DNA of 64,000 bases from NCBI RefSeq assembly GCF_049337375.1, contig NZ_JBMPIV010000015.1. One strand, 5' to 3'. Made by a program: the position numbers and the translations under genes. The notes below the pieces were generated by a model, which did not search any database, was not told where the DNA came from, and saw only the letters and a list, made by a program, of their open reading frames with translations. This DNA comes from Nannocystis pusilla (GTDB taxonomy: Bacteria; Myxococcota_A; Polyangia; Nannocystales; Nannocystaceae). Positions 2,539 through 56,586 of the stretch are shown in pieces. Within the stretch, counting starts at the first letter, position 1; each line of letters begins with the position of its first letter.

Positions 2539-3294
2539 GTGCGCGTCCGCTGCGAAGAGGGCGAGCTAGTTCATCGGCTGTTCCTCGGGACAGGTCCCGG
2601 AGAACATGTCGCATTGGACACCGACGGGATCGCCGCGCTGGCCGAGGCGGTCGAGCAGGCGGTCGCCGGTCCGGCGCGCGCGCTGGTGATCGCCAGCGAG
2701 GGCCCCGAGTTCTGCGCCGGCATGGACCTCGCGGCGGCGCTGCGGACCCCGTCGGCGCAGATGCGCGAGGCCATGCAGCGCTTCGCCGGCTGTCTCGAGC
2801 TGCTGGCGAGCGCGAAGCTGGCGACGATCGCGGTGGTCACGGGCGCGGCCAGCGGCGGCGGGGTCGGCCTGGCGGCCGCGTGCGACCTGGTGGTGGCGGC
2901 GTCGGCGGCCACGTTCGCGCTGCCGGAGCTGCGCTACGGGCTGGTGCCGGCGGTGATCTTCCCGGCGCTCGAGGCCCGGATCGGCGCGCGGCGGACCCGG
3001 CGGCTGGCGCTGACCGGCGAGCTGGTGACCGCGGCCCAGGCCGAGCCGTGGGGCCTCGTCGACGTGGTCGCGGACGACCCGGACAAGGCGCTGCGCGGCC
3101 TCTTGCGCTCGCTGCTGCGCGCGCGCCCGCAGGCGGTGGCGACGCTCAAGCGGATCACCGGGCCGTCGGGGCAGGGCGGGGTGGCCCAGACCGCGGCCGA
3201 CCTCGAGGACCCCGAGCTGCGGGCGGCGCTGGCGGCCCTGCTGGCCGAGGGGCAGGCGCCGCCGTGGTTCGCCAGGCTGAAAGGACAGGAATGA
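2539..3294 (+). CDS. enoyl-CoA hydratase-like ECH1 (PksH/TaX-type dehydratase of the HMGS cassette)
   Basis: Crotonase fold: CAGMDL, ...VVTGAASGGGVGLAAACDLVVA. GGAGG lies 7 nt upstream of GTG 2539. Confidence 0.8.
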   Translation: MRVRCEEGELVHRLFLGTGPGEHVALDTDGIAALAEAVEQAVAGPARALVIASEGPEFCAGMDLAAALRTPSAQMREAMQRFAGCLELLASAKLATIAVVTGAASGGGVGLAAACDLVVAASAATFALPELRYGLVPAVIFPALEARIGARRTRRLALTGELVTAAQAEPWGLVDVVADDPDKALRGLLRSLLRARPQAVATLKRITGPSGQGGVAQTAADLEDPELRAALAALLAEGQAPPWFARLKGQE

Positions 3295-4067
3295 ACGCGC
3301 ATGTCCAAACAGACAGCCTCGTCGAGGTGACGCTCGAGCGCGACGGCGTGGCCGTGCTGACCATGCGCGACGCCGCCGGCAAGAACGCGTTCGGCCGGGC
3401 GTTCGTCGCCGTGCTGACGCGCGCGCTCGAGGACCTCGGCCGGCGCGCCGACGTCCGCGTGGTCGTGATCGCCGGCCTGCCCGAGGTGTTCTCCGCCGGC
3501 GGCGACCGCGACGTCCTGCTCGGCCTCGCCGACGGCACGATCGCCCCGTACGACCTGCTGCTGACGCGGGCGCTGCTCGAGGTGCCGGTGCCGACGATCG
3601 CCGCGATGGCGGGGCCCGCGGTCGGCGGCGGCCTGGTGTTCGGCCTCGCCTGCGACATGGTCGTGATGGCCCGCGAGAGCCGCTACGGCGCCAATTTCAT
3701 GGACCTCGGCTTCACGCCGGGGATGGGCGCGACGCGCCTCGTGCAGTTCGCGTTCGGCGAGTACGTCGGGGCCGAGATGCTGTACGGCTCGCAGTACTTC
3801 CGCGGCGAGCAGCTGGCGGGGCGCGGCCAGGTCAACGCGGTCGTGCCGCGCGCCGAGGTGCTGCCGCGGGCGCTCGACCTGGCGGCGCGGATCGCCGACA
3901 AGCCGCGGGCTGCGCTGCTGTTGCTCAAACGTGCGCTGGCGTTGCCGCGGCGACGGGCCTTCGAGGAGGCGCGCACGGTCGAGTCGATGATGCACGAGGT
4001 ATGCTTCGCCGACCCGGAGACGGTGGCGCGGATCCGCACGAACTACGGGCCAGGCCAGGGAGGATGA
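3291..4067 (+). CDS. enoyl-CoA hydratase-like ECH2 (PksI/TaY-type decarboxylase of the HMGS cassette)
   Basis: Crotonase fold (AGKNAFG..., AMAGPAVGGGLVFGLACD). ATGA start/stop overlap with ECH1. Confidence 0.8.
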   Translation: MNAHVQTDSLVEVTLERDGVAVLTMRDAAGKNAFGRAFVAVLTRALEDLGRRADVRVVVIAGLPEVFSAGGDRDVLLGLADGTIAPYDLLLTRALLEVPVPTIAAMAGPAVGGGLVFGLACDMVVMARESRYGANFMDLGFTPGMGATRLVQFAFGEYVGAEMLYGSQYFRGEQLAGRGQVNAVVPRAEVLPRALDLAARIADKPRAALLLLKRALALPRRRAFEEARTVESMMHEVCFADPETVARIRTNYGPGQGG

Positions 4068-4070
4068 CGC

Positions 4071-4886
4071 TTGCTCAATGACTTCAAGGACAGGGTCGTC
4101 TTGATCACGGGCGGGACGCGCGGCATCGGCCTCGCGTGCGCGCTCGCGTTCGGGCGCCAGGGCGCGCGCACGGTGCTGACGCACCGCTGGGGCTCGGCCG
4201 ACGAGGACGCGCTGAAGGCCCGCTTTATCGCCGCCGGGGCCCCGGCGCCGCTGGTGATCGAGGCCGACGCGTCGCGCGAGGAGGACACCGACAAGCTGAC
4301 CGCGCGGCTCAAGGAGGAGTGCGACGGCGTGTGGGCGTTCATCAGCAACGTCTGCGTGGTCCAGCGCGGCGAAGGGCCGGAGAAGCACACCCGGCGCGCG
4401 CTGTACAAGAGCCTCGAGTACTCGAGCTGGCCGTTCGTCGGCTACCTGCAGGCGCTGCACGCCGCGTTCGGTCGCTACCCCCGCTACGCGCTGGCGATGT
4501 CGTCCGACGGGCCCGACACGCACTACCCCGGCTACGACTACGTGGCGGTGGCCAAGGCGGTGCTGGAGACGTTCGTGCGCTACATGAGCACGCACCTCTA
4601 CGAGCACGGCTGCATCGTCAACGCCCTGCGCACCCGCCAGGTGATGACCGAGAGCTACGAGCAGATGTTCGCCGCCCAGCAGCGCGAGCTGGCGAGCAAG
4701 TTCCCCGAGTTCGCGTGCACGGTCGACGAGGTCGCCGACACGACCCTCGCGCTGTGCAGCGGGCTGTTCGACGCGATGGGCGGGCAAGTGCTGACGCTCG
4801 ACCGCGGCGCGGCGTTCGTCGACAACGTCGCCACGCTCGGGCCGCGGCTCGTCGGCGGCAGCGACAAGGAAGGAGCTCCGGCGTGA
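4071..4886 (+). CDS. FabI/FabL-family (SDR) enoyl-ACP reductase, copy 1
   Basis: TGGTRGIGLA Gly motif. Tyr-x6-Lys (YDYVAVAK) followed by VRYMS, as in FabI (YNVMGLAK...VRYMA). Rare TTG start with GGAGGA 6 nt upstream. Confidence 0.65.
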   Translation: MLNDFKDRVVLITGGTRGIGLACALAFGRQGARTVLTHRWGSADEDALKARFIAAGAPAPLVIEADASREEDTDKLTARLKEECDGVWAFISNVCVVQRGEGPEKHTRRALYKSLEYSSWPFVGYLQALHAAFGRYPRYALAMSSDGPDTHYPGYDYVAVAKAVLETFVRYMSTHLYEHGCIVNALRTRQVMTESYEQMFAAQQRELASKFPEFACTVDEVADTTLALCSGLFDAMGGQVLTLDRGAAFVDNVATLGPRLVGGSDKEGAPA

Positions 4887-5698
4887 TCCTCCGCAACGAC
4901 CTCAAGGGCAAGGCCGTCATCGTCACCGGCGGGACGGCGGGCATCGGCCTGGCGACCGGCCTGCTGTTCGGCAAGTACGGCGCGCACGTGTACCTGACGC
5001 ACCGCTGGGGCTCGGCCGACGAGGACGAGCTGCGGGCCCGCTTCGACGCCGCGGGCGCGCCGGCGCCGACGATCGTCGAGGCCGACGCGTCGCAGGACGA
5101 GGACACCGAGGCGCTGATGGAGGCGGTCAAGCGCGACCACGACGCCGTGTTCGCGCTGATCAGCAACGTGTCGTTCGCCCACGTCAGCAAGTCGCACGAG
5201 GACCTCGACAAGAAGAGCTTCCTGCGCAGCCTCGGCTACAGCGCGTGGCCGTTCGTCGGCTACCTGCAGGCCATCCGCGAGACCTTCGGCCGCTGGCCCC
5301 GTTACGCGGTGGGAATGTCGTCGCGCGGGCCCGAGTACTTCCTCCCGGGCTACGACTTCGTGGCCGCGAGCAAGACCGTGATGGAGACCTTCTGTCGCTA
5401 CCTCACGGCAGATCTGCTCAGTGAGGATGTTCGCATCAACATCCTGCGCGCGAACCCGGTCGAGACTGCATCGCTGGAGGCCACGTTCGGGCCCGACTTC
5501 GTGCCGTTCTGCAAGAAGTACTACTCGGAAGGCTGGTTCATCGACCCCGACGAGGTCGCGGCCGCGGCGCTGGCCCTCTGCAGCGGCCTCATGGACGGCG
5601 TCAAGGGGCAGATTCTGCTACTGGACAGGGGCCTCGGTTTCGCCGACAACGTCGTTCGCCTGTTTTCGGCGCGCGAGCGCCACGGGCTGAGTTTTTGA
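4883..5698 (+). CDS. FabI/FabL-family (SDR) enoyl-ACP reductase, copy 2 (tandem paralog)
   Basis: Paralog of the previous CDS (TGGTAGIGLA; HRWGSADEDE; YDFVAASK). GTGA start/stop overlap. AAGGAAGGAG RBS. Confidence 0.65.
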   Translation: MILRNDLKGKAVIVTGGTAGIGLATGLLFGKYGAHVYLTHRWGSADEDELRARFDAAGAPAPTIVEADASQDEDTEALMEAVKRDHDAVFALISNVSFAHVSKSHEDLDKKSFLRSLGYSAWPFVGYLQAIRETFGRWPRYAVGMSSRGPEYFLPGYDFVAASKTVMETFCRYLTADLLSEDVRINILRANPVETASLEATFGPDFVPFCKKYYSEGWFIDPDEVAAAALALCSGLMDGVKGQILLLDRGLGFADNVVRLFSARERHGLSF

Positions 5699-5761: not shown

Positions 5762-6028
5762 ATGAGCACCCGCGATGATGTCTTGGCCGTCGTCAAGCGC
5801 CACCTCGTGGACACCGTCGAAGGGATCGATGCGGCCCAGGTCGACCCCGCCAAGTCGATGAAGGACCTCGGGGCCAACAGCCTCGACATCGTCGAGGTCG
5901 TCTCCTGCAGCATGCGCGAGCTCAAGGTGAAGATCCCCCGCGCCGAGCTCAACAAGCTGACGAACATCAACGAGCTCGTCGACCTGCTGCACAAGACGGT
6001 GCAAGAGAAGCAGGCCGCCGCGTCCTGA
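5762..6028 (+). CDS. acyl carrier protein (free-standing ACP, likely donor ACP of the HMGS cassette)
   Basis: 88 aa with LGANSLDIVEVV (DSL phosphopantetheine-attachment Ser). Confidence 0.85.
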   Translation: MSTRDDVLAVVKRHLVDTVEGIDAAQVDPAKSMKDLGANSLDIVEVVSCSMRELKVKIPRAELNKLTNINELVDLLHKTVQEKQAAAS

Positions 6029-6179: not shown

Positions 6180-6600
6180 CCGAGCGAAGCGCGTGGGCTT
6201 CGCCTGGCTTTGGGTTCAATGTGGCCAAGGTCGGACGGCAACCAGCGCTGCGGCAAGGCGATCCCCGGCCTTCCAGGCCGATGCGGGTTCGATCGCTGCG
6301 GCTGGCAGGCCAGCTTCGGCGCACCGTCAGACCTGGCCTTCAAGGCCGATGCGGGCTCGATCGCAGGCCGGCGCTTTGGCGCGCCGTCACGCCTGGCCTT
6401 AGGGTCATGGCGAAATCAGGGCGGGGCAGCGCCGCGGCGAGATGATGCACCTGGCCTTCGGGCCAGGTGCGCGGCTCAGGTAAGCCCGTGCTTCACGGCG
6501 CGGTCTCCTCTGGTTCGCAGCTCCCGAGGCGTCTGTCCTTTGAGCCAGGTACGTGACGCATGCGGGCCTCGGCGTGGCTTGCGGCTCAGGCGGGCGGCAG
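6180..6600. repeat. cluster of >=5 imperfect ~60-70-bp direct repeats, each containing a GGCCTTCnAGGCC / CTGGCCTTCGGGCCAG-type hairpin
   Basis: Seen directly: cctggccttcaaggccgatgcggg..., ccggccttccaggccgatgcggg..., cctggccttagggtcatggcg, ctggccttcgggccaggtgcgcggctcagg. The region is non-coding, between the ACP stop and a convergent gene. Confidence 0.6.
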
Positions 6601-7389
6601 GCGGCGGACCAGCGCGTCGGCGCGACGCCAGGCCGACACGACCAGGAGCGCCCACACGTTGAGCCCGACCGCGACCGCGAGGGCGGCTGTCCAGAAGGAC
6701 AGATCGAGCCGGACCGCCGCGGCGGCGGTGGCGACGTAGAGCAGCGCGAGGTGGGTGTCGTGGCTCAGCGGCGCCGCCATGCGCAGGGGAGGGGCCAGCA
6801 GCGAGCGGGCCGCGCCGGGAGCGGGACGGGGGCCGGTGTGCTCCGGCCCGAGCAGCGCGGCCGCGATGTCATGGAACACAGCGGGGCCGAGCCCGCGGGA
6901 CAGCGCGGCGACCGAGGGCCGCGGCGAGGGCGGCGCTGCGTCGCTGCCTCCGCCGGTCAGGTCGCGGAACCGGCGACGCAGCTCGGCGTGCAGCCCGACG
7001 TGGATCAGCGCGCTGACCAGCGCCACCGACGCGAGGGTGCAGGCCCACGGGTTGGCCGGCGCGGCTCGCAGCGTCAGCGCGACCCAGAAGGCGGCGCCGA
7101 TCGCAAACTCGAGCGTGCCGGCCTCGGCCTCCGCGGCGCCGGCGAGGAGGCGGCGACACCGGCTGGCGACGGTGAACGCGAACAACAGCCAGGCGGGGAA
7201 GATCCAGTCGACGCCGCTCGGCGCGGCCAGCAGCACGGCGACGGCGCCGGTGAGGCCGACCACGAGTCCGGCGAGGGTGAGCAGCTCGACGCTCGGCGCC
7301 GGTCGCACCCGCTCGAGGACCCACGCTGCGAGCGGCCGATGGAGGTGGCGATCGAGAGTTCCCTCGGTGATCGGATCGTCGTCGGCCAT
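6586..7389 (-). CDS. hypothetical polytopic membrane protein
   Basis: 267 aa with several hydrophobic helices. No recognised catalytic motif. Confidence 0.45.
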   Translation of the reverse strand: MADDDPITEGTLDRHLHRPLAAWVLERVRPAPSVELLTLAGLVVGLTGAVAVLLAAPSGVDWIFPAWLLFAFTVASRCRRLLAGAAEAEAGTLEFAIGAAFWVALTLRAAPANPWACTLASVALVSALIHVGLHAELRRRFRDLTGGGSDAAPPSPRPSVAALSRGLGPAVFHDIAAALLGPEHTGPRPAPGAARSLLAPPLRMAAPLSHDTHLALLYVATAAAAVRLDLSFWTAALAVAVGLNVWALLVVSAWRRADALVRRLPPA

Positions 7390-11980: not shown

Positions 11981-12508
11981 TTACGGGATGTTCCCTTCCA
12001 TGGCCAGCTCGAACACCTCGACGTCGTCGGCGTCCTTGGCCATGAGGAAGGCGCGGAGCGGGCGGTCGCCGCGGTAGACCTTGAGCTCGCTGTGGATCGC
12101 GCGAGCCGCCTCCTCGGCCGGGATCCCGAGCTCGAACGCACCCATCAACGGGACGGCGACGCTCGTGAAGCCCTTGACCTTGCAGGCCACCAGCACGGCC
12201 GCGGTGGCGCGCAGGACGTCCTCGACCTGGACGCGACCGCCGGGGCGATCGGTGTTGGGCACGTGGATGAGGTACTTCGCCTTCATCTTGCCGGCCGGCG
12301 TCACGAACGCGGCGCCGATCGCCAGCGGGGTGTGCTCCTTCACCATCGCCTCGATCTCGCGACCGGCGAGGTCGCGGATCTTGTTGGCCGGGAAGTGACT
12401 CATCACGCCCTCGGAGTTGGTCGGACAGACGAAGGCGTCGACCGCGATCTGCTCCCAGGGCAAGGTCGAGATCTGGATCTCGACGGACTCATTGATGTCG
12501 GTGGCCAC
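11981..12508 (-). CDS. macro-domain (ADP-ribose binding/processing) protein
   Basis: 175 aa. AVDAFVCPTNSEG and an internal Gly-rich region fit the macro fold (cf. ..DAIVNAANSSL..). Confidence 0.55.
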   Translation of the reverse strand: MATDINESVEIQISTLPWEQIAVDAFVCPTNSEGVMSHFPANKIRDLAGREIEAMVKEHTPLAIGAAFVTPAGKMKAKYLIHVPNTDRPGGRVQVEDVLRATAAVLVACKVKGFTSVAVPLMGAFELGIPAEEAARAIHSELKVYRGDRPLRAFLMAKDADDVEVFELAMEGNIP

Positions 12509-12521
12509 GCGCGGACCTTAC

Positions 12522-13013
12522 TCAAGCCTGCAGCATCGAGTCCAGCTCGGCGGCGATCGCGGACTCGGGCTCGTTGCGGACGGTCGAGAGCTCACGAATG
12601 ACCAGGTTCCGGGCGGTCTGCAGCATCTGCCGCTCGCCGTGCGAGAGGTTCTTGGTGTGCTTGAGGAGGCTCAGATCGCGGTACACCTCGCCGACCTCGA
12701 ACAGCGAACCCGTGCGGATCTTCTCCATGAAGCCGCGGTAGCGCCGGTTCCAGGTCTGGCGATCGCACGGGACCTCGTGGTCGCGCAGCAGATCGTAGAG
12801 CTCGTCGATCATCTCGCCGTCGGCGAGGGGACGCATGCCGTTCTCTTCGGCCTTGGCCACCGGCACGATGATCTTCAGGCCAGAGCCGAGGACGCGCAGG
12901 TGATAGAACTGGAAGGGGCGCGACTCGATGATTTTCGTCTCGAGGGCCATGACCTCGGCGACACCGTGAGTCGGGTAAACGGCCTTCTCACCAACGTTGA
13001 ATCGGGGTTGCAT
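12522..13013 (-). CDS. cdnL: CarD-family RNA-polymerase-binding transcription factor
   Basis: MQPRFNVGEKAVYPTHGVAEVMALE... matches the CarD/CdnL N-terminal RNAP-interacting domain. 163 aa. Confidence 0.8.
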   Translation of the reverse strand: MQPRFNVGEKAVYPTHGVAEVMALETKIIESRPFQFYHLRVLGSGLKIIVPVAKAEENGMRPLADGEMIDELYDLLRDHEVPCDRQTWNRRYRGFMEKIRTGSLFEVGEVYRDLSLLKHTKNLSHGERQMLQTARNLVIRELSTVRNEPESAIAAELDSMLQA

Positions 13014-13476
13014 CGGCAGTTCGTCTCCAGGCGTTTGCGCGCGCCCCTCTGCACCTCTTGTGCCGCCGACTCGTCGACGGGCGTCGTGGGGACGATTTCC
13101 CCCACCTTCAGGGTAGTTCGGGACAGTTGGGCCCGGTGCAGTCGAGCTCGGCGCGTCGGCGCAGGGTGCTCCTTAAGCGGAAAAAAGGCCCAGGGGGCCG
13201 ATCGGGGCGATCCTGCGGGTGACTGCGCCGCCAGTGGATGGCGCGGCGGAAAGGGCGAAGAAGCAGCGACAAGCCAAGGGGGTCGGTATTCGGACGGCCG
13301 CCCGGACACCGGTCGGCCACTTGCCGGCCATCGCGAGGCCAGCAGTCAGGTGGCTACTAAGGGTGGCTACGATTGTGGCCACCCCGGACGAGCGGGTTTG
13401 CCCGCCTGTCGGGCAAAGTAGATAGCAGCCGGGTGAGGCGCGTCCAGTGAAAAGAACGGTGTGAACCTGGCATATC

Positions 13477-14175
13477 TCACTGCAGGGCCACGATCCGCCA
13501 TCCCTGAGGAGTCTGCTCGAGCGTCAGGGCGCGCCCGGGCTCGTAGCGCAGGATCGCGCGTTCCATCCCCGGCGTGAACTCAATTGCCCCAGGTTGCTTC
13601 AGGAGTTGCTCCAGAAGGTCGGCCCGGCGGTTCCAGTCGTCGCGGAGGCGCGAAGAGAGATCGTCTGCGAGTAGCGCGGAAAGCGCGCCGAGATCGGCCC
13701 GCCGGACGGCCGTCAAAAAGGCCCGAATCGCGCTGGCCGGGGTCGAGAGGTCCGGCAAGCCCGGCAGGCCGGTCACGACCTGGTAATGACCGCCGACCTG
13801 CACCCAGGCGAGGACGGCGCCGTCGTGGATGGTCTCGCCGCCCCGCATCGGCGTCTTGAGCGCCGGAGGCAGCGTGTCGAGCGCGGCCCTGGCCGCCGAG
13901 CGCTCGGCTGCCTGCGCTTTCCAGCGCGCCGTGAACGCCTCCTTCGAGGTCGCGGCGCGCAGCTCCGGGCTGAGCAGAGCGTACGCAGCGGCCGGATCGT
14001 CGGCGGCCAGAGCGCGCGCATAGGCGTCGCGCAACGCTTCAGGGCTGCGCGCGCCGCCACCGCCGCGACAGGCCAGCAGCAACAGACCGGCGAGCAACAA
14101 GGATGAGCGGCGACGTACGGGCCGCCGAATGCCGGGTGCGCGGAGCGTGGGCAAGGCTCGATGGATTCCTGTCAC
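13477..14175 (-). CDS. lipoprotein, hypothetical
   Basis: Signal peptide with lipobox LLLLAC. Confidence 0.5.
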   Translation of the reverse strand: MTGIHRALPTLRAPGIRRPVRRRSSLLLAGLLLLACRGGGGARSPEALRDAYARALAADDPAAAYALLSPELRAATSKEAFTARWKAQAAERSAARAALDTLPPALKTPMRGGETIHDGAVLAWVQVGGHYQVVTGLPGLPDLSTPASAIRAFLTAVRRADLGALSALLADDLSSRLRDDWNRRADLLEQLLKQPGAIEFTPGMERAILRYEPGRALTLEQTPQGWRIVALQ

Positions 14176-14190: not shown

Positions 14191-15804
14191 TCAGGCCTTG
14201 GGCCCGCTGCGCTTGTCGAGGATGATGTCGTGCGCGTACTCGTCGCGCGTGGTCGGGTAGTCGATCGTGTAGTGGAGGCCGCGCGACTCCTTGCGCTGGC
14301 GGGCGCACTCGATGATGAGGCTGCCGACCAGAGAGATGTTGCGCAGCTCGAGCACGTCGCGGGTGACGCGGAATTTCCAGTAGTACTCGAGAATCTCCTC
14401 GCGGATGAGGTCGAGCCGCCGCCGCCCGCGCTCGAGCCGCTTGTCCGAGCGGACGATGCCGACGAAGTTCCACATGGCGGCGCGCACCTCTTCCCAGTTG
14501 GCCGAGACCATGACTGCCTCGTCCGACTCGCGCGCGGCGCCCTCGTTCCACGGGCTGACGTGGTCGGGCGGGCCGCGGCCGAAGTCGTCGCAGGCCTGGG
14601 CGGCGCCGTCGGCGAGGACGACCGCCTCGAGCAGACTGTTGGAGGCCAGGCGGCAGGCGCCGTGGAGGCCGCTCATCGCGACCTCGCCGATCGCCATCAG
14701 CCCGGGGACGTCGGTGCGGCCGTGGCGATCGACGACGATGCCGCCGCACATGTAGTGGGCCGCGGGGACCACGGGGATCGGGTCCTTGCGCATGTCGATG
14801 CCGACCGACATGCAGCGGGCGTGGATCGCCGGGAAGCGGCTGACCACGTAGTCCGGATCGAGGTGCGTCATGTCGAGGAACACGCAGCGCTCGCCCGACC
14901 GCTTGAGCTCGGCGTCGATCTCGCGGGCGACCACGTCGCGCGGGGCGAGCGAGCCCATCGGGTGCCGCTCGGCCATGAGGTCGCTGCCGTCGGCCCGCCG
15001 CAGGATGCCGCCCTCGCCGCGCAGCGCCTCGGAGATCAAGAAGGTGTTGGCGTCGGGGTGGTGCAGGCAGGTCGGGTGGAACTGCATGAACTCGAGGTTG
15101 CCGACCGAGGCGCCGATCCGGTAGGCGACCGCGACGCCGTCGGCGGTGGCGACCGCCGGGTTGGTCGTATAGCGGTAGACGCGGCCGGCCCCGCCGGTGG
15201 CGAGGACCGTGATCGGGGCGACGAATGCCTCGACCCGGTCGGCGGCGTTGTTGAGCGCATACACGCCGAAGCAGCCGCGGCTGCCGTCGACCTTGGTCCA
15301 GCTCAGGAGGTCGATGACGGTGTGGTGCTCGTGGATCGTGATGTTCGGGTGGGCGTGCGCGGCCGCCAGCAGGGCGCGCTCGATCTCGTAGCCGGTGGTG
15401 TCGCGGTGATGCACGACGCGGCGGCGCGAGTGGCCGCCCTCCCGCCCGAGCTCGAAGGGGGCGTGCTCGTCGCCGCCGACGCGATCGAAGTGGACGCCGT
15501 AGCGCTCGGCCAGGCGCCGCACGAGGGTGGGCCCGCGCTGGACGGCGTAGGTGACCATGTCACGGTTGCACAGGCCGGCGCCGACGGTCAGCGTGTCCTC
15601 GATGTGCTCCTCGAGCGAGTCGTCGCCCGCGAACACGGCCGAGATCCCGCCCTGGGCCCAGCGGGTGTTGCTCGACTCGGCGCGGTGCTTGGTGAGGATC
15701 ACCACCGGCCCGCGATCCGCGACCTCGAGGGCGAAGTAGAGGCCCGCGAGCCCGCTGCCGAGCACGAGGTAGCGCGCGTGGTGGATCGGCGTGCTGGCAA
15801 TCAT
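14191..15804 (-). CDS. nadB: L-aspartate oxidase
   Basis: FAD-binding LVLGSGLAGL. Flavoprotein motifs throughout (RSxRGLHY-like ...KESRGLHYT). Start re-derived at MIASTPIHH (ATG 15804), dropping a 112-aa Arg/Pro-rich extension. Confidence 0.9.
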   Translation of the reverse strand: MIASTPIHHARYLVLGSGLAGLYFALEVADRGPVVILTKHRAESSNTRWAQGGISAVFAGDDSLEEHIEDTLTVGAGLCNRDMVTYAVQRGPTLVRRLAERYGVHFDRVGGDEHAPFELGREGGHSRRRVVHHRDTTGYEIERALLAAAHAHPNITIHEHHTVIDLLSWTKVDGSRGCFGVYALNNAADRVEAFVAPITVLATGGAGRVYRYTTNPAVATADGVAVAYRIGASVGNLEFMQFHPTCLHHPDANTFLISEALRGEGGILRRADGSDLMAERHPMGSLAPRDVVAREIDAELKRSGERCVFLDMTHLDPDYVVSRFPAIHARCMSVGIDMRKDPIPVVPAAHYMCGGIVVDRHGRTDVPGLMAIGEVAMSGLHGACRLASNSLLEAVVLADGAAQACDDFGRGPPDHVSPWNEGAARESDEAVMVSANWEEVRAAMWNFVGIVRSDKRLERGRRRLDLIREEILEYYWKFRVTRDVLELRNISLVGSLIIECARQRKESRGLHYTIDYPTTRDEYAHDIILDKRSGPKA

Positions 15805-47567: not shown

Positions 47568-47840
47568 GGCCTGCTTTCGGGCTCCTTTCGCCGGGCTCGC
47601 CGCGCCGCGTCATGGTTTTCGGACCATGTCTCAAGATGCAGTCCGTCGCACACGCGACCTGCGCAGTGGCCCGCGGTCCGGTAACGCCGCTGGGTGGTCT
47701 TTGAGACAGAGGCCGACGGGGCCTGCGCCAGGCTACGCGGCGCGTTTCCGCGCGAGGGCTGAGATAATCTTCTCGGCCACGATCGGGTGCGCATCAGCTT
47801 GCCAAGGCGGATCCCCTGTGTGACCTTCAGTCTGCGGCGC

Positions 47841-48935
47841 ATGCTCTACGAGGACCGCTACAAGCTGATTTTGGCCGCGTGCCAGGACATTCGCCGGCAT
47901 CGCGAGCAGGTCGCCAAGACGGTGATAGCGAGCCAGCTCCTCGACGCCCTCGACGTCGATGTCCCGAGCGACGCGCTGTTGTCCCACATCGTCGCCGAGT
48001 CGCTGTTGCGACGGATCGACCGCAACCTGCTGTCGGGGCGGAACTTGTACCTGCAAGCCGAGAAGCGGCCGCAGATCGACCTGTTCACGCTGCTGCAGCG
48101 GGCGATCCCGGCGGTGCCGCAGGGCTACGCGCTGGCCAACCAGTACCTCGTGCACGCGATGCGGCAGTCGAGCACGCCGGCGCTGCTCGAGATCGGGATC
48201 GGCAAGGGCCTGCAGATCGTCGCGCTGCTGCGGGCGCTCGCGCGCGACCCCGGCAAGATCGAGCGCCTCCGCGTGATCGCGCTCGAGCCGAACCGCACGG
48301 CCCTGAACGAGGGCGTGGCCGCGATCGACGAGGTCCGCGCCGAGCTGCCGTTCGACATCGAGATCTATCCGCTGGTCAAGCTGATCGAGGTCTGCGAGGA
48401 TGCCGACTACGCGCACTTCGAGGCGCTCGCCGAGGGGAGCTTGTCGATCAACGCGGCCTACACGCTGCACCACACCACGGGGCCCGACAGCGACGCGCGC
48501 ACCCGGCTGCTGCGGCGGCTGCGGGCCCTGCGGCCGCGGGTGTTCACGCTGGTGGAGCCGAGCTCGGACCACGACACCGAGCACCTCACCCGGCGCATGC
48601 ACCACTGTTGGCAGCACTTCGCCACGGTGTTCGATCTGGTCGACCGCAGCGACGCGTCCCCCGACGAGAAGTTCGCCATCAAGGAGGGCTTCTTCGGCCG
48701 CGAGGTCCGCGACATCCTCGGCACCAGCGACGCCTTCCGCACCGAGCGCCACGAGACGCTCGAGTCGTGGCTGCTGCGGCTGAAGAAGTCGGGCTTCGTG
48801 CCGTACCCGGCGATCGACCTCGACGTCGACCTGCCCGAGTACTGCCGCTCCTCGGTCAGCTCCGGGCTCGTGCGCCTGTCGTACCGCGGCGTGCCGATCA
48901 TCGCGGTGTTCGCGTTCGCAGGGGAGGCGGGATGA
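47841..48935 (+). CDS. bacterial GRAS-domain protein (Rossmann-fold methyltransferase-like)
   Basis: The C-terminal FRTERHETLESWLLRLKKSGFVPYP matches the GRAS RVER/SAW region (ERHETL.QWR.R...AGF.P). An alternative GTG start lies at 47787. Confidence 0.6.
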   Translation: MLYEDRYKLILAACQDIRRHREQVAKTVIASQLLDALDVDVPSDALLSHIVAESLLRRIDRNLLSGRNLYLQAEKRPQIDLFTLLQRAIPAVPQGYALANQYLVHAMRQSSTPALLEIGIGKGLQIVALLRALARDPGKIERLRVIALEPNRTALNEGVAAIDEVRAELPFDIEIYPLVKLIEVCEDADYAHFEALAEGSLSINAAYTLHHTTGPDSDARTRLLRRLRALRPRVFTLVEPSSDHDTEHLTRRMHHCWQHFATVFDLVDRSDASPDEKFAIKEGFFGREVRDILGTSDAFRTERHETLESWLLRLKKSGFVPYPAIDLDVDLPEYCRSSVSSGLVRLSYRGVPIIAVFAFAGEAG

Positions 48936-49474
48936 GCGACGAGAGCGAGCCGAGCGAGCCGGTGGTCCACGGGGCGCTCATGGGCGGCTTCGCCCAGGCG
49001 TGCGTCAACCTCAACATCGTCGCCGGTCGACGGGCCACCGCGCTGCTGGCCGACATCGACATGGGGCGGTGGTTCCCGCTGTCGAAGTGGATGGAGATCG
49101 AGCGGATGGTCGGCGAGTCGTACGCCAACGTCGAGCCGATCCGGCTCAAGCTCGGCATCGAGATGATGACGTTGTGGTACCACCACGGCCCCGGCAAGGC
49201 GCTCATCCACCGCGGCGCCGACTTTCTGCACTTCCAGACCGGCAGCCACGGCATCGCCAGCGTCATCCGCGGCCCGCGCGAGGTGGTCGGCTCGTTCGAC
49301 CTCGCCGAGTTCGACTCGGAGCGCGGCCACGCCGTGATCCGCTCGTCCACGCCGTTCGACAAGACGATCGAGCGCGGCGTGCTGATCGGCGGGGTGATGG
49401 CGCCCGGCGACCTCTACTACGTCGACGTGACGAACGACGGCGACCCCAACCGGCTCGTGGTGGAGTTCCACTGA
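48932..49474 (+). CDS. hypothetical protein (180 aa), possible sensory/ligand-binding partner
   Basis: GGGGAGG RBS. ATGA overlap with the GRAS gene. No recognised motif. Confidence 0.5.
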   Translation: MSDESEPSEPVVHGALMGGFAQACVNLNIVAGRRATALLADIDMGRWFPLSKWMEIERMVGESYANVEPIRLKLGIEMMTLWYHHGPGKALIHRGADFLHFQTGSHGIASVIRGPREVVGSFDLAEFDSERGHAVIRSSTPFDKTIERGVLIGGVMAPGDLYYVDVTNDGDPNRLVVEFH

Positions 49475-49475
49475 G

Positions 49476-50402
49476 ATGACGCTCGACGAGATCCTCGAGG
49501 GGCGAGACCCCGACCGCCTGTCCGAGCTGTCGCGCGAGGACATGCGCCGGCTGTTCTGGATGTACAAGGGCCTGCTCAAGCGGGTCGAGCGCGACACCGC
49601 CTACTGGCAGGCGACCAACGACAACCTGCGCACCGCGTACGAGCGGCTCGACGAGCAGGAGCGCGAGCTGGCCCGCGCCTACCAGACCATCCGCCAGGAC
49701 CTCGAGATCGCCCAGCAGGTCCAGCACGCGCTGCTGCCGAAGGACCACCCGGAGATGCTCGCGCGCTTCGAGTTCTCGGTCTACCACAAGCAGATGACCG
49801 AGGTCGGCGGCGACTACTATGACTTCTACCGCCTGCGCGACGGCAGCCACGCGATCGGCGTGTTCGACATCTCCGGCCACGGGGTGTCGGCGGCGCTCAT
49901 CATGGCCTACCTCAAGGCCCAGCTGGTCCAGACGATGGAGCAGGTGTCGCGCCCGCGCGACATCGTCGAGTACCTCAACAACGCGACCGTCGGGTTCCTC
50001 CGCGAGGTCCGCCGCTACGCCACCGTCAACTTCGTCGCGTTCGGCGAGCGCACGTTCCGCTACGTGTGCGGCGGCGGCTACGGGGTGCTGGTCCGCGGCG
50101 GCGAGGTCCACACGTTCAACAAGGGCGACCCGTTCATCGGCCTGCGCCGACGCGCGTACAGCGAGTACGAGCTGCCCTTCGAGACAGGTGACGTGCTGGC
50201 GCTGTACACCGACGGCATGGTCGAGGCGCAGGACAGCGCGGGCGCCGACTACAGCACCCGCCGGCTGCACGAGCTCGTGCGCACCAACGCGGAGCTGCCG
50301 GCCAACCAGATCCTCCAGCGGTGCCTCGACGACTACGGGCAGTTCCGTCGCGTCGACGCCGACGACATCACCCTCATCGTGCTGCGGAGGCGGGCGGCGT
50401 GA
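49476..50402 (+). CDS. PP2C-type (SpoIIE/RsbU-like) serine phosphatase
   Basis: GGDYYDF...FDISGHG signature. Confidence 0.8.
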   Translation: MTLDEILEGRDPDRLSELSREDMRRLFWMYKGLLKRVERDTAYWQATNDNLRTAYERLDEQERELARAYQTIRQDLEIAQQVQHALLPKDHPEMLARFEFSVYHKQMTEVGGDYYDFYRLRDGSHAIGVFDISGHGVSAALIMAYLKAQLVQTMEQVSRPRDIVEYLNNATVGFLREVRRYATVNFVAFGERTFRYVCGGGYGVLVRGGEVHTFNKGDPFIGLRRRAYSEYELPFETGDVLALYTDGMVEAQDSAGADYSTRRLHELVRTNAELPANQILQRCLDDYGQFRRVDADDITLIVLRRRAA

Positions 50403-50914
50403 GCGAGCACGAGTTCGACGACGAACCGATCACGACCAGCGTCGGCCTGACGCTGACGGTCGCGCCGATGGGCGACGCGCGCGGCAACCTGGCGACGACC
50501 GTCGGCGAGTCGCTGCTGGCGATGCTGACGGTCTTCTACCCGCAGGCGCTGTGCAAGAAGGCCAACGTGGTCATCACCGAGCTGGTCCAGAACGTGATCG
50601 ACAACGTCAGCGATCCGGGCAGCCAGATGCGCGTCGACCTGCGCATCGACGGCGACGCGCTGCAGGTCCAGGTCACCAACAAGGCGACCTTCGAGCAGTA
50701 CCAGGACGTGAAGGACCGCGTCGACCGGCTGACGACGGCGACCGACCCGAAGCGCCTGTTCGCCGACACGCTCCGCGCCCGCCGCATGCAGCGGCTGCGC
50801 GGGGGGCTCGGCCTCATCCGCCTGGTGTCCGAGAACCGCTTCCGCTTGTCCGCGACGTACTCGGGCGAGAACTTGACGATGCAGGCGGTGTTTCCTTTGC
50901 GAGGTGCGCAATGA
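50399..50914 (+). CDS. anti-sigma regulatory factor / RsbW-like Ser kinase (GHKL ATPase)
   Basis: ITELVQNVIDN (N-box). GGLGLIRLVS (G2-box). GTGA overlap with the phosphatase gene. Confidence 0.7.
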   Translation: MSEHEFDDEPITTSVGLTLTVAPMGDARGNLATTVGESLLAMLTVFYPQALCKKANVVITELVQNVIDNVSDPGSQMRVDLRIDGDALQVQVTNKATFEQYQDVKDRVDRLTTATDPKRLFADTLRARRMQRLRGGLGLIRLVSENRFRLSATYSGENLTMQAVFPLRGAQ

Positions 50915-51318
50915 ACGTCCTCACCTACGGCGAGATCATGGACGGCGGCGTCAGTGTGTTCCACTGCGTCGCCCGCGAGGACGAGGGGAACTTCTCCCTC
51001 ACGTTCTCGGGCGTGGTCCGGATCGACAACCCTTATCGCTATCTGTCGGCGCTGCTGCAGGACCTGCGCGAGATCTTGCCGAAGCGGGAGATCCAGCGCA
51101 GCGTGCTCGACTTCACCGAGCTCGAGTTCTGCAACTCCAACGGCTTCTACGTGATCATGGACATCGTCGAGCTGGTCTACCTGCTGCTGCCCGGGCCGGT
51201 GCTGGTCCGCCGCCTGCAGGAGGACGACTGGCAGCAGGAGACGCTGCCGATCCTGCTCAACCTCGACGAGGAAACCATCGCCGCCCGGACGACCTTCGAG
51301 GACGTGCGAGAGTTCTGA
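50911..51318 (+). CDS. STAS-domain anti-sigma-factor antagonist (RsbV-like)
   Basis: LDFTELEFCNSNGFYVIMDIVE matches the STAS phosphorylation loop (DLSGV.FIDSSG). ATGA overlap. Confidence 0.65.
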   Translation: MNVLTYGEIMDGGVSVFHCVAREDEGNFSLTFSGVVRIDNPYRYLSALLQDLREILPKREIQRSVLDFTELEFCNSNGFYVIMDIVELVYLLLPGPVLVRRLQEDDWQQETLPILLNLDEETIAARTTFEDVREF

Positions 51319-51319
51319 C

Positions 51320-52408
51320 ATGGTGGCGATCCTCGAGCTGGTGGAGTCGATCGCGCTGCGCGTCGATGCCGACGGCAAGGTGACCCCGGCGTCGCCGGCG
51401 GCGGCCCGCTGGCTGGCCGCCCGCCCCGGCGCGCCCAGCCTCGGCGCGCTGTTCGGCGCCGCGTCGCCGGCGTTCCTGCGCAGCCTGGCCGAGAGCAGCG
51501 GCAAGGCGGTGCCCGAGAATCCCTGGCCCGAAGGACCTGTCGCATGGGACCTGTCCTTGGAGCCCTCCGACGGGGTGCTGGCGGTGGGCGTCGCCATCCG
51601 CTCGCCGCGGGCGCTGGCGTCGCAGCTGGCGACCGCGACCCTGCTCGACAAGAGCCTGGCGCTGGCGGTGCTGCCGCGCGAGTCGGCGGCGCCGCTCGGC
51701 GAGCGGCTCCAGCCCAAGGCCTACCGCGAGTCGACGGTGATGTTCATCGACGCGGTCCAGTTCTCGCGCCTGGCCGCCCGCGTCGACCCGGTCACCTGCC
51801 TCAAGCAGCTCGACTTCTTCTTCTCGGCCTTCGACCAGATCACGTCGGCGTTCGGGGTCGAGAAGCTGCGCACCGCCGGCGACACGTACGTGGCGGTCTC
51901 GGGCATCCCCCACCGCCGCCTGTCGCACGCCGTCGACGCGACGTTCGCCGCGCTGCGCTGCGCCCAGGTGGTGGCGTCGGGGCTGACGCCGATCGTCGAC
52001 GAGTGGGACTGGAGCTTCCGCATCGGCCTCCACTCGGGCCCCTGCATCTCCGGCGTGCTCGGCTCGAAGAAGCCGGTCTACGACCTGTGGGGCGACACCG
52101 TCAGCGTCGCCAGCCACGTCGAGCGCGTCGGCCAGCCCGACTCGGTGTGCGTGTCCGGGGCGGTCCGTCAGCTCATCGAGCCGTTCTTCTCGCTCGAGTT
52201 CCTGCAGACGACGGTGACCCGCAGCGTCGGCGAGATCGAGGTGTTCGCGGTCCGCGGGCTGCTCCCCGAGCTGCAGGCCGACGACCAGGCGGTGGTCGCC
52301 AACGCCGAGTTCACGGCCCGCTACGAGGCGCGCTTCGGCTCGCCGTGCCCGACCGCCGCCCAGGAGGCCCTCGGGGTCGAGCTCGGCCAGGGCCTCGACG
52401 AGTTCTGA
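51320..52408 (+). CDS. class III adenylate/guanylate cyclase with N-terminal unknown sensor region
   Basis: VMFIDAVQFSRL, KLRTAGDTYVAVSG, GLHSGPCISGVLGSKKPVYDLWGDTVSVAS. Confidence 0.8.
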   Translation: MVAILELVESIALRVDADGKVTPASPAAARWLAARPGAPSLGALFGAASPAFLRSLAESSGKAVPENPWPEGPVAWDLSLEPSDGVLAVGVAIRSPRALASQLATATLLDKSLALAVLPRESAAPLGERLQPKAYRESTVMFIDAVQFSRLAARVDPVTCLKQLDFFFSAFDQITSAFGVEKLRTAGDTYVAVSGIPHRRLSHAVDATFAALRCAQVVASGLTPIVDEWDWSFRIGLHSGPCISGVLGSKKPVYDLWGDTVSVASHVERVGQPDSVCVSGAVRQLIEPFFSLEFLQTTVTRSVGEIEVFAVRGLLPELQADDQAVVANAEFTARYEARFGSPCPTAAQEALGVELGQGLDEF

Positions 52409-54501: not shown

Positions 54502-56586
54502 TCAATGCGAGGCGGCGATCACGGTGAGCGTGCGGCGCATGACCAGAGTGGTCCAGGTGTCGGTCAGCGGCAGGGCAGGGATCGTGACGCTGCCGTCGGG
54601 GCCAGCGACCACCTCGCCGTGGTCCTGGCCGAACGACCAGGCGACGCGCTCGCCGGGGCGGCAGCGGAAGGCCTGGGTGCGGCGCGGGGTCACGTCGACG
54701 AACGCGGGCAGCTCGGCCATCACCCGGTCGCCCTCGCTCGGGTAGCCGGGCGCGGGCGGGTCGGCGCCGTCGCCGGCGTGGACGCGCAGGGCGAATTGCA
54801 GGCGATCGACGGTGTCGACCACCGAGGCGCCGTCCCAGCGGAGGAACCGGCCGAGCGCGCCGGCGATGGCGCCGTCCCAGCCGGTGTCGCCGGCGATGGC
54901 GACCTCGCCGGCGAAGCCCGCGTTGGCGCTCCAGTCCTGCTTGCCGTTGCCGACGCCGACGCCGGGGTCGTCGTCGAGCGAGGAGTACGAGAAGGCGGGG
55001 AACGCCCGGTCGCGGCGCAGCGTGGCCTCGTCGCCGCTGATCGGCGCCCACGAGCCGGTCCACCAGCTGTCCCCGAGGACAGGATCGGCGACGCCGTGGC
55101 CGCCCTCGTCCCAGATGGCGAAGTGGCCGACGCCGCGGCTCTGCAGCGCCTGATAAAAGCTCTCGCCGGTGCGCGGGCTCGGCAGGACGGTGGCCCCGAA
55201 GTGGATGGTCGGGTCGTCCTTGCCGTGCTTGAGGAACAGGAACTGGTCGCGGGCCTCGCTCGACTCGGCGAGGGCGCGCGTCAGGTCCATGTGATCCCAC
55301 GCCGACAGGCCGCCGCCGCCGTCGAGGTCGAGCTCCGGCGCGCCCCACCAGCCGGACAGCTGGGTGATCCGCGACGGCCGGTGGTTGCGCGCGATCGCCT
55401 GACCGAGGCGCGCGTCGATGTACGCGAAGTGACGCCCGCGCAGGAGGCCGAGCAGCATCGCCCCGGCGCCGCCCATCGAGCTGCCGTAGACGTAGACGCG
55501 CTGCGGGTCGGCCTCGGGGTGGTGGCGCAGGACGTACTCGACGAGGTGGAGCACGCGGCGCATGGTGTAGTCGGGCGCGGCGCCGCCGGCCGCGGGCTCG
55601 ACGTCGGGCAGCGAATCCGCGTAGCCCCACCAGTAGGTGTTGTCCGGGTCATGCGGCGAGATCCGGATCTCGTTGGCCGAGCCGGTGCCGCCGGGGTTGG
55701 CGGTGGCGAAGCCGTGCAGGCCGATCCGCACCGGCACGCCCTCGGACGGGGCCTCGAGCGGGACCATGACCTTGGCGACGAACTCGCGGCCGGCGTAGCC
55801 CGGGCTGTCGAGGTACTCATCTGTCTTTTGGGACAGGGTGTAACGGACATATCCGCTGGCGTCGAGGAACTCGGTGTCGACGACCTCGGGCCACGGCGGC
55901 TGGATGGTGTCGCGGACGACGACGTCGAAGGTGGCCTCGACGCGCGACTCGTGGTCGTGGGCGAGCACGGTGACGGTCCAGCGATCGCCGCCCTGGGTGA
56001 AGTCGGGGGTGAAGCGGAAGGTGCGGGTCGGCTCGTCCCAGGTGGCGCCCGGCGGCAGGCCGAGCACGTGGACGCGCAGGGCCGCGGGCTCGGCGACGTC
56101 GACGACGTCGACGACGAGGCCGACCTCGGTGTCCTCGTCGACCCCGACCTCGGCGGGGACGAGGATCCGCGGGGCCGAGCGCTCGACGGCGAGGGTCAGC
56201 GGGCGCGACTCCTCGTCGTCGCGGCGGACCAGCACCTCGTAGTCGCCGCGCTTGCGCGGGCCGCTGTGGGCGTGCAGCTCGCCGCCCGAGACGAAGGTGG
56301 TCGGCAGCTCCTGGCCGGCGACGACGACGACGCTGGAGCGCGTGAAGCCGGCGCCGGTGACGTGGAGGTCGAAGGCGACGCCGCCGGGCGCCGGGTCGGG
56401 CGAGAGCGCGTCGAGCTCGAGCGGCGCGAGCTGGGGGCCGCCCAGCGGGCCCTCGCTGACGGGCGGGCGCGTCGGCGGCGTCTGCTCGTCAGGGATGGCG
56501 CCCGAGAAGCCGCTGTAACAGCCGGCGAGGGCGAGCCACGTGACCGTGAGGCACGCGCGCGAGACCAGGCCAGAGCAGGACAACAT
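54502..56586 (-). CDS. secreted lipoprotein esterase (alpha/beta hydrolase, PHB-depolymerase-like) with N-terminal Ig-like domains
   Basis: Lipobox LALAGC. VYVYGSSMGGAGAM (GxSxG motif). Confidence 0.65.
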   Translation of the reverse strand: MLSCSGLVSRACLTVTWLALAGCYSGFSGAIPDEQTPPTRPPVSEGPLGGPQLAPLELDALSPDPAPGGVAFDLHVTGAGFTRSSVVVVAGQELPTTFVSGGELHAHSGPRKRGDYEVLVRRDDEESRPLTLAVERSAPRILVPAEVGVDEDTEVGLVVDVVDVAEPAALRVHVLGLPPGATWDEPTRTFRFTPDFTQGGDRWTVTVLAHDHESRVEATFDVVVRDTIQPPWPEVVDTEFLDASGYVRYTLSQKTDEYLDSPGYAGREFVAKVMVPLEAPSEGVPVRIGLHGFATANPGGTGSANEIRISPHDPDNTYWWGYADSLPDVEPAAGGAAPDYTMRRVLHLVEYVLRHHPEADPQRVYVYGSSMGGAGAMLLGLLRGRHFAYIDARLGQAIARNHRPSRITQLSGWWGAPELDLDGGGGLSAWDHMDLTRALAESSEARDQFLFLKHGKDDPTIHFGATVLPSPRTGESFYQALQSRGVGHFAIWDEGGHGVADPVLGDSWWTGSWAPISGDEATLRRDRAFPAFSYSSLDDDPGVGVGNGKQDWSANAGFAGEVAIAGDTGWDGAIAGALGRFLRWDGASVVDTVDRLQFALRVHAGDGADPPAPGYPSEGDRVMAELPAFVDVTPRRTQAFRCRPGERVAWSFGQDHGEVVAGPDGSVTIPALPLTDTWTTLVMRRTLTVIAASH

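Follow-up and report, generated by a model that had tools for sequence, protein, structure and literature searches.

A tandem pair of FabL/FabI-related reductases in a type II fatty acid synthase-like branching operon of Nannocystis pusilla: a candidate heteromeric enoyl-ACP reductase

The window analysed here is a stretch of 64,000 nucleotides of the Nannocystis pusilla contig NZ_JBMPIV010000015.1 (assembly GCF_049337375.1), with a G+C content of about 72%, in which genes were called by the G+C content of their codon positions. Positions 4071–5698 hold exactly two genes, tightly packed on the plus strand and coding for two paralogues of the short-chain dehydrogenase/reductase (SDR) type, SDR-A and SDR-B. 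They lie between genes for an ECH2-type crotonase and an acyl carrier protein (ACP), downstream of those for an HMG-ACP synthase (HMGS; HMG, 3-hydroxy-3-methylglutaryl) and an ECH1-type crotonase. SDR-A (4071–4886, 271 residues; Pfam adh_short_C2, 2.6e-26) opens with a TTG codon placed 6 nt after the Shine-Dalgarno sequence GGGAGGA and has a strong coding signal, with a G+C content at third codon positions (GC3) of 0.97. SDR-B (4883–5698, 271 residues; adh_short_C2, 8.8e-32) starts at a GTG that overlaps the stop codon of SDR-A as GTGA, with GGAAGGAG placed 7 nt upstream; an exact-sequence look-up found no record of this protein. The two proteins share 51% identity (BLASTP, E 2e-90) and their genes about 74% at the DNA level, the strongest divergence being located in the substrate-binding lid (residues ~190–215). 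A preliminary description of this DNA had proposed an ancient duplication with ~45% identity, of which the age holds and the identity figure is replaced by the value given here. The AlphaFold2 (AF2) model of SDR-A is well defined, with a pLDDT of 90 and a pTM of 0.90.

Both proteins contain the TGGTxGIG Rossmann motif noticed in that description, as TGGTRGIG in SDR-A (nt 4107–4130) and TGGTAGIG in SDR-B (nt 4925–4948). The tyrosine and the lysine of the active site are separated by six residues in both, Tyr155-x6-Lys162 in SDR-A (YDYVAVAK, nt 4533–4556) and Tyr157-x6-Lys164 in SDR-B (YDFVAASK, nt 5351–5374), and in the alignments they fall on Y156/K163 of FabI and Y151/K158 of FabL; the dyad had been described as FabI-like and not of the YxxxK type, and the conserved FabI pair is indeed present. 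The VRYM stretch reported to follow it in both proteins is seen only in SDR-A, its counterpart in SDR-B being CRYL. Two further elements are hallmarks of the family to which the pair belongs. The first one, LT[HY][RK]WGSADE, follows strand β2 and reads LTHRWGSADE in both proteins (4176–4205 in SDR-A and 4994–5023 in SDR-B). The second, N-x-L-R-x-R, occupies the site of S-[AG]-G in FabI and FabL and of P-G in ketoreductases (KRs), and corresponds to NALRTR in SDR-A (4620–4637) and NILRAN in SDR-B (5438–5455). The 30 nt coding for LTHRWGSADE are identical between the two genes, a match that could stem from codon bias (97% GC3) or from local gene conversion.

Related loci were collected by scanning 185,579 species genomes with a degenerate pattern and by metagenome look-ups. 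The Tyr-x6-Lys dyad is invariant in the 70 family members aligned from these loci (70/70), and valine or alanine occupies the position of the classical SDR tyrosine in every one of them. The Ser...Tyr-x3-Lys triad of classical SDR ketoreductases is therefore absent from SDR-A and SDR-B. When a profile built from 17 family members was searched against the PDB, the top matches were all enoyl reductases (ERs), namely Aquifex FabI (2p91, 4e-27), Bacillus subtilis FabL (3oic, 6e-24) and Thermus FabI (1ulu, 4e-23), and this ranking, together with the invariant dyad, bears out the earlier assignment of the pair to the FabI/FabL type rather than to the ketoreductases. Single-sequence searches of the PDB gave distant matches only (E ~1e-16), many of them FabI entries, with the tyrosine and lysine again on the FabI dyad.

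Model searches place the pair beside FabL and FabI but outside both. The FabL equivalog NF005975, with a cut-off of 328 bits, gave 70.8 bits for SDR-A and 72.5 for SDR-B, and the best FabI model gave 48–63 bits against cut-offs of 299–477. In the NCBIfam scans of the single proteins no model reached its cut-off and FabL came second behind a generic SDR model, a result that is not diagnostic alone. Identity to FabI and FabL amounts to ~18–26%. The FabI-type cofactor motif (GxxxxxSxA-like) is missing, its place being taken by the classical TGGTxGIG, and the features found are of the FabL type: TGGTxGIG, THRW and YxxVxxxK, to be compared with TGSSRGVG, NYARS and YTTVGVSK in FabL. In a neighbour-joining (NJ) tree the family is monophyletic in 99/100 bootstraps and clusters with FabL/FabI, apart from the KRs used as outgroup. 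A hidden Markov model (HMM) search of 1.84 billion representative proteins recovered 138 proteins at E<=1e-30, separated by a clear score gap from other SDRs. By sequence, then, SDR-A and SDR-B are members of a small distinct clade, sister to FabL/FabI and outside both equivalogs, and we consider it highly probable that their function is enoyl-ACP reduction. The cofactor is probably NADPH, since the arginine that follows β2 (in THRW) is the same as in the NADPH-dependent FabL.

The presence of two copies could mean one enzyme with two kinds of subunit or two enzymes, and the related loci shed light on this point. Complete A and B units are found fused in P0121 (565 residues), where they are joined by a Pro/Thr/Ala-rich linker, and P0028, P0035 and P0083 are further A-B fusions, found in a like operon context in locus L086. 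In other cases one of the units has decayed. P0122 has a degenerate N-terminal half (TRG in the glycine motif, lysine changed to glutamine, lid deleted) followed by an intact C-terminal half, P0126 and P0152 retain a vestige of a second SDR, and in two Nitrospinota loci a degenerate SDR of the family (L036, 9233–9970; L041, 9236–9961), with AEG for TGG and the catalytic tyrosine lost, lies directly upstream of an intact copy and looks like a conserved pseudo-enzyme partner. In the AF2 model of the P0121 fusion only the linker (268–292) is disordered and the pTM reaches 0.83; since a value of ~0.5 would be expected for an uncertain domain orientation, by our own estimate, a defined A:B packing is predicted.

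The number of SDR copies is, besides, uncoupled from the HMGS cassette. Locus L011 keeps both SDRs, sisters of those of the cassette-bearing L010, in an operon of phosphopantetheinyl transferase (PPTase), ACP, oxoamine synthase, acyltransferase (AT), dehydratase (DH), ketosynthase (KS) and KR genes without HMGS or ECH, and nine spirochaete loci have the series KS-KR-HMGS-ECH1-ECH2 with a single SDR. These two arrangements run counter to the earlier suggestion that the duplicated pair serves two successive reductions or a dedicated reduction of the branch. Taken together, the GTGA overlap, the fusions, the retained degenerate partners and the uncoupled copy number favour SDR-A and SDR-B as subunits of one heteromeric enzyme, a reading that we hold as probable, with modest confidence. 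Weighing against it, the catalytic sites of both Nannocystis subunits seem intact, and their lids differ.

These last features would be better accommodated if SDR-A and SDR-B were two independent homo-oligomeric ERs, one acting on ordinary trans-2-enoyl-ACP and the other on the hindered 3-methyl-2-enoyl-ACP, or with their work split by chain length. In each protein the glycine motif is complete and the Tyr/Lys dyad is kept, the lid is the region of greatest A/B difference, the SDR genes come directly after ECH2, and an A-B fusion also fits consecutive enzymes. This alternative is nevertheless rather unlikely in our judgement, because L011 retains both paralogues in the absence of HMGS and ECH, the spirochaete operons have a complete HMGS cassette with one SDR copy, and conserved but dead partners would be difficult to account for if the second unit were not structural.

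As for the history of the pair, the paired copies have lost a glycine that is kept by the single-copy members of the family (R-[FA]-G), by FabI/FabL (S-[AG]-G) and by KRs (P-G), and this shared loss suggests one old duplication, followed by spread with the operon. The Nannocystaceae A and B clades are well supported in the NJ tree (98/100 and 100/100 bootstraps), but their links to the pairs of other phyla reach no more than 6–46/100 there, and it is hence the glycine loss, and not the tree, that points to a single ancient duplication.

The pair belongs to an operon that enters the window through the C-terminal part of a FabF/PksF-like KS (3–422; Pfam Ketoacyl-synt_C, 1.7e-26; NCBIfam fabF, 3.7e-41), the gene of which begins before the window. 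All the following genes are on the same plus strand: a FabG-like 3-oxoacyl-ACP reductase, the KR of the operon (419–1174; TIGR01830, 5.5e-71; Pfam adh_short, 7e-51), with a classical YxxxK motif (NYAASK); an HMGS of the polyketide synthase (PKS) type (1189–2430; Pfam HMG_CoA_synt_C/N; PDB matches CurD, 3.8e-80, and PksG, 1.8e-69); an ECH1-type crotonase resembling the dehydratase PksH (2539–3294; Pfam ECH_1, 2e-31; best NCBIfam model NF005498, 121.5 bits, below its cut-off); an ECH2-type crotonase resembling the decarboxylases PksI and CurF (3291–4067; NF005496, 274.5 bits for a cut-off of 215; PDB matches PksI, 3.7e-45, and CurF ECH2, 3.3e-40); SDR-A and SDR-B; and a discrete AcpK-like ACP (5762–6028; Pfam PP-binding, 2.3e-09; NF005502, 60.8 bits, below the 79-bit cut-off). 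From KS to ACP the genes are spaced by −4, 14, 108, −4, 3, −4 and 63 nt. The HMGS, ECH1 and decarboxylating ECH2 of a PKS β-branching cassette are thus present, with ECH1 below its cut-off. The preliminary description had called a pair embedded in such a cassette atypical; the gene order and the unusual association of an SDR-type ER with it are maintained, while the PKS setting is not.

The ACP shows the motif GANSLD, a valine at Ser+6 and a basic helix, RELKVKIPR, and lacks the tryptophan flag of PKS acceptor ACPs. It is highly conserved across phyla (GANSLDIVEVVS...RELKVKIPR). The residue before the phosphopantetheine serine is Asn in place of Asp (GANSLD), nearly invariantly across phyla, and the basic RELKVKIPR stretch sits where the housekeeping AcpP is acidic.

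In this strain the ACP is the final gene of the operon and minus-strand genes lie downstream. What follows is on the other strand or of a housekeeping or regulatory nature (PduO-type adenosyltransferase, CarD, NadB, SucC, peptidases, kinases). Two minus-strand open reading frames (ORFs) of the window, 6586–7389 (267 residues) and 54502–56586 (694 residues), have a good coding signal and no Pfam match, the former being conserved at 14219–15022 of locus L004, from the strain Nannocystis pusilla Na p29. Farther on, a plus-strand series composed of a GRAS-domain protein (47820–48935; PF03514, 1.4e-35), small ORFs, a SpoIIE-type phosphatase (49476–50402) and an adenylate/guanylate cyclase (51320–52408) may be a signalling module (47820–52408).

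The window DNA is 98% identical to L004, its position 1 corresponding to position 5932 there, and this locus allowed the operon to be followed upstream. In L004 and in L001, from a Myxococcales metagenome-assembled genome (MAG), the upstream genes code for an oxoamine synthase of the BioF/KBL/SPT family (SPT, serine palmitoyltransferase), a FabD-like AT, a FabZ/ApeI-like DH and a full KS. Among the models the KS comes nearest to that of PksF, with 355 bits for a cut-off of 445, and its full-length orthologue in L001 keeps the active-site cysteine (GACAS) and both histidines; because the Cys-His-His set is retained, the KS should be competent for condensation. The best PDB matches of the oxoamine synthase are bacterial serine palmitoyltransferases (3a2b, 5e-70), with similar scores against the BioF, KBL and SPT models. 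Just downstream of the operon ACP, L004 has an inserted IS630-like transposase ORF of 368 residues (12574–13680, minus strand), and this insertion, of ~2.1 kb, is absent from the window strain (gap between 6151 and 6575).

A common compact operon, of ~11 genes and ~10 kb, recurs in about 45 related loci of at least 10 phyla and is made up of oxoamine synthase, AT, DH, KS, KR, HMGS, ECH1, ECH2, one or more SDRs and ACP. The loci were found in Myxococcota (several families), Gemmatimonadota, Acidobacteriota, Nitrospinota, Spirochaetota, Bacteroidota, Gamma- and Alphaproteobacteria, Planctomycetota, Chloroflexota and Actinokineospora, flanked by housekeeping genes such as those for DnaB, PurA and YchF. 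Clustering of all the ORFs of these loci returned as conserved families the SDR (45 loci), ACP (41), KS/KR (40), ECH (39), DH (35), oxoamine synthase (31), HMGS (31), AT (26) and an Sfp-type PPTase (11). Neither FabK nor FabV nor a medium-chain (MDR) reductase is conserved among the ~45 loci, which offer no other ER candidate; it is only with the SDR pair as ER that the operon covers every activity of a fatty acid synthase (FAS) cycle. No modular PKS was found in the 64-kb window or in the upstream 5.9 kb of L004, nor is one conserved in the ~45 loci, and the operon is self-contained. The earlier picture of trans-acting ERs working for a PKS is accordingly abandoned, and the operon is seen as a discrete machine of the type II FAS kind, into which an HMGS cassette has been inserted and whose off-loading step falls to an oxoamine synthase.

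Some loci depart from this layout. On the chromosome of Candidatus Haliotispira prima (L025, 7208–12868) a reduced cluster of an ECH2-like protein, one SDR, ACP and oxoamine synthase adjoins an opposite-strand lipid kinase of the DAGK_cat/YegS type, with no KS, KR or HMGS within 10 kb. Two Myxococcales MAGs carry a type I PKS module (an ACP-KS extended at its C terminus; L017, 14–2413; L018, 2–1609), followed by KR, one SDR of the family, ACP, oxoamine synthase and DH. No HMGS cassette is present in these two loci, where the SDR family is coupled to a type I system.

Several loci contain, in addition, a separate SDR of the classical YxxxK type. In L009 it lies directly after the ACP (11996–12832), and it follows the oxoamine synthase in L020 (~12950–13757), L021 (5037–5828), L026 (12111–12920) and L032 (6624–7418). 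The best PDB match of the L009 protein is the 3-ketodihydrosphingosine reductase TSC10 (8jat, 2e-27), while NCBIfam returned generic SDR models only. In some loci there are also genes for glycosyltransferases, for a sulfotransferase or for a lipid kinase resembling diacylglycerol/sphingosine kinases. The TSC10-like SDR hints that the product of the operon is a sphingoid-like base.

Gene content, motifs, tree placement and co-occurrence are what the analysis shows directly; from them we infer the ER activity of the pair, its cofactor, its heteromeric assembly, its action on a branched enoyl substrate and the class of the product, and the following pathway can be proposed. The AT would load malonyl units on the ACP of the operon, and the single cysteine-containing KS would catalyse the condensations and probably also decarboxylate, thereby supplying acetyl-ACP. 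Ordinary reductive cycles would be run by the FabG-like KR and the FabZ-like DH, and one or more β-ketoacyl-ACP intermediates would be converted by HMGS, ECH1 and ECH2 to 3-methyl-2-enoyl-ACP. The SDR pair would then transfer a hydride of NADPH to C3 of the enoyl thioester; Tyr155/157 would protonate the enolate, while Lys162/164 would hold the nicotinamide ribose. In this way the pair would saturate the ordinary and, presumably, the β-methyl enoyl intermediates. The branch could be an iso-terminus, reached through the series acetoacetyl, HMG, 3-methylcrotonyl, isovaleryl, or could arise from repeated β-methylation. Finally, the SPT/BioF-like oxoamine synthase would join the methyl-branched acyl-ACP to an amino acid to give a 3-keto long-chain base, a step proposed on account of the TSC10-like SDRs, the SPT-like character of the oxoamine synthase and the lipid-modifying genes. 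The proposal as a whole, a heteromeric, FabL-like and probably NADPH-dependent ER of a type II FAS-like branching pathway with a sphingoid-like product, is the one we favour, if by a narrow measure of confidence.

SDR-A and SDR-B could also be imagined as carbonyl reductases, acting on β-ketoacyl-ACP or, like KDSR/Tsc10, on the 3-keto product of the oxoamine synthase. This is very improbable, as the tyrosine of YxxxK is replaced in every member, a bona fide FabG-like KR and, in several loci, separate classical Tsc10-like SDRs are already there for such reactions, and ERs top the profile search. Least probable of all is that the pair provides trans-acting ERs, or a self-resistance FabI/FabL isozyme, for a modular (trans-acyltransferase) PKS: HMGS, ECH1, ECH2 and the AcpK-like ACP are nearest to PKS cassette parts (CurD, PksG, PksI, CurF), but with the type I module of L017/L018, itself without HMGS, as the sole exception to the lack of a modular PKS in the neighbourhoods described above, and with an identity to FabI and FabL unfit for a copy of a housekeeping enzyme, both variants were rejected.

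No description of the operon or of the SDR clade was found in the full-text literature, subscription-only papers being outside the scope of the search. What is new is an ER clade with an unusual two-unit architecture and an arrangement of known modules. FabI, FabL, FabV and FabK, which are antibiotic targets, are treated as homo-oligomers, and we know of no heteromeric enoyl-ACP reductase described so far; a two-subunit, fused or half-dead FabL/FabI-related ER would, if true, add an architecture to this class of enzymes. HMGS-dependent β-branching is seen as a trait of modular PKSs, and here the cassette forms part of a minimal type II FAS that has a single KS, a single ACP and an off-loading enzyme resembling SPT. 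Conservation of the operon from Myxococcota to Spirochaetota, Bacteroidota, Acidobacteriota, Nitrospinota and further groups suggests a widespread membrane or signalling lipid, and its small size makes heterologous expression a direct route. More tentatively, and with doubt prevailing, the system may represent the first heteromeric enoyl-ACP reductase together with a multi-phylum type II FAS with an HMGS cassette, building methyl-branched acyl-ACP of an iso or isoprenoid pattern with no input from branched-chain amino acids or S-adenosylmethionine and leading, through the SPT-like oxoamine synthase, to new branched sphingoid-like bases.

Among the known ERs FabL is a homotetramer. The B. subtilis enzyme (YgaA; PDB 3OIC/3OID) resembles the SDR family in the combination of TGxxxGxG and YxxVxxxK, in the ALExxxRYL helix, in a basic residue after β2 and in a length of ~250–270 residues. 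It differs in sequence, with ~18–20% identity and with the LT[HY][RK]WGSADE and N-x-L-R-x-R elements of the family replacing its S-G-G region, and the members of the family occur paired, fused or with a degenerate partner and sit in a specialised operon instead of a housekeeping FAS. The FabI proteins (E. coli, Aquifex 2P91, Thermus 1ULU) share the Tyr-x6-Lys dyad and the VRYM/RYL helix, but lack the classical TGxxxGIG (GNERSIA and GNQRSLG are found in its place) and are of the NADH type.

On the side of the pathway, the alternative isovaleryl-CoA route of Myxococcus (MvaS/LiuC/AibAB/AibC) follows the same conversion of HMG through methylglutaconyl to dimethylacrylyl, followed by reduction. 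In this Aib route the intermediates are bound to CoA and the reductase is of the MDR type. PKS-associated ERs are of the FMN type (PksE) or of the MDR type (CurF/MupE), whereas the ER of the operon is an SDR. The entry into bacterial sphingolipids, in which an SPT with a dedicated ACP is followed by a 3-ketosphinganine reductase, has in common with the operon an SPT/BioF-family oxoamine synthase beside a dedicated ACP and, in several related loci, Tsc10-like SDRs; here, unlike there, the operon would supply its own FAS, with an ACP-bound HMGS cassette, to make the acyl chain. The HMGS cassettes of PKSs (PksF/G/H/I with AcpK; CurA-F; BonF-I with BonN, PMC12560621) also contain HMGS, ECH1, a decarboxylating ECH2 and an AcpK-like ACP, but the operon has no modular PKS and no tryptophan-flagged acceptor ACP, and includes AT, KR, DH and oxoamine synthase. 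Canonical cassettes are composed of ACP-D, a non-elongating KS0, HMGS and ECH1, with or without ECH2 (PMC12560621), and in contrast to this KS0 the operon KS, judged by its L001 orthologue, has the active-site cysteine.

For the pair itself the nearest architectural parallels are the heterotetrameric SDRs HSD17B8/CBR4, the mitochondrial ketoacyl-ACP reductase, and BbsCD (PDB 7PCS), and an analogous architecture is proposed for SDR-A/SDR-B. Both are YxxxK enzymes with ketoreductase or dehydrogenase activity, whereas SDR-A/SDR-B are predicted to reduce a C=C bond, and in Nannocystis both subunits look catalytically competent.

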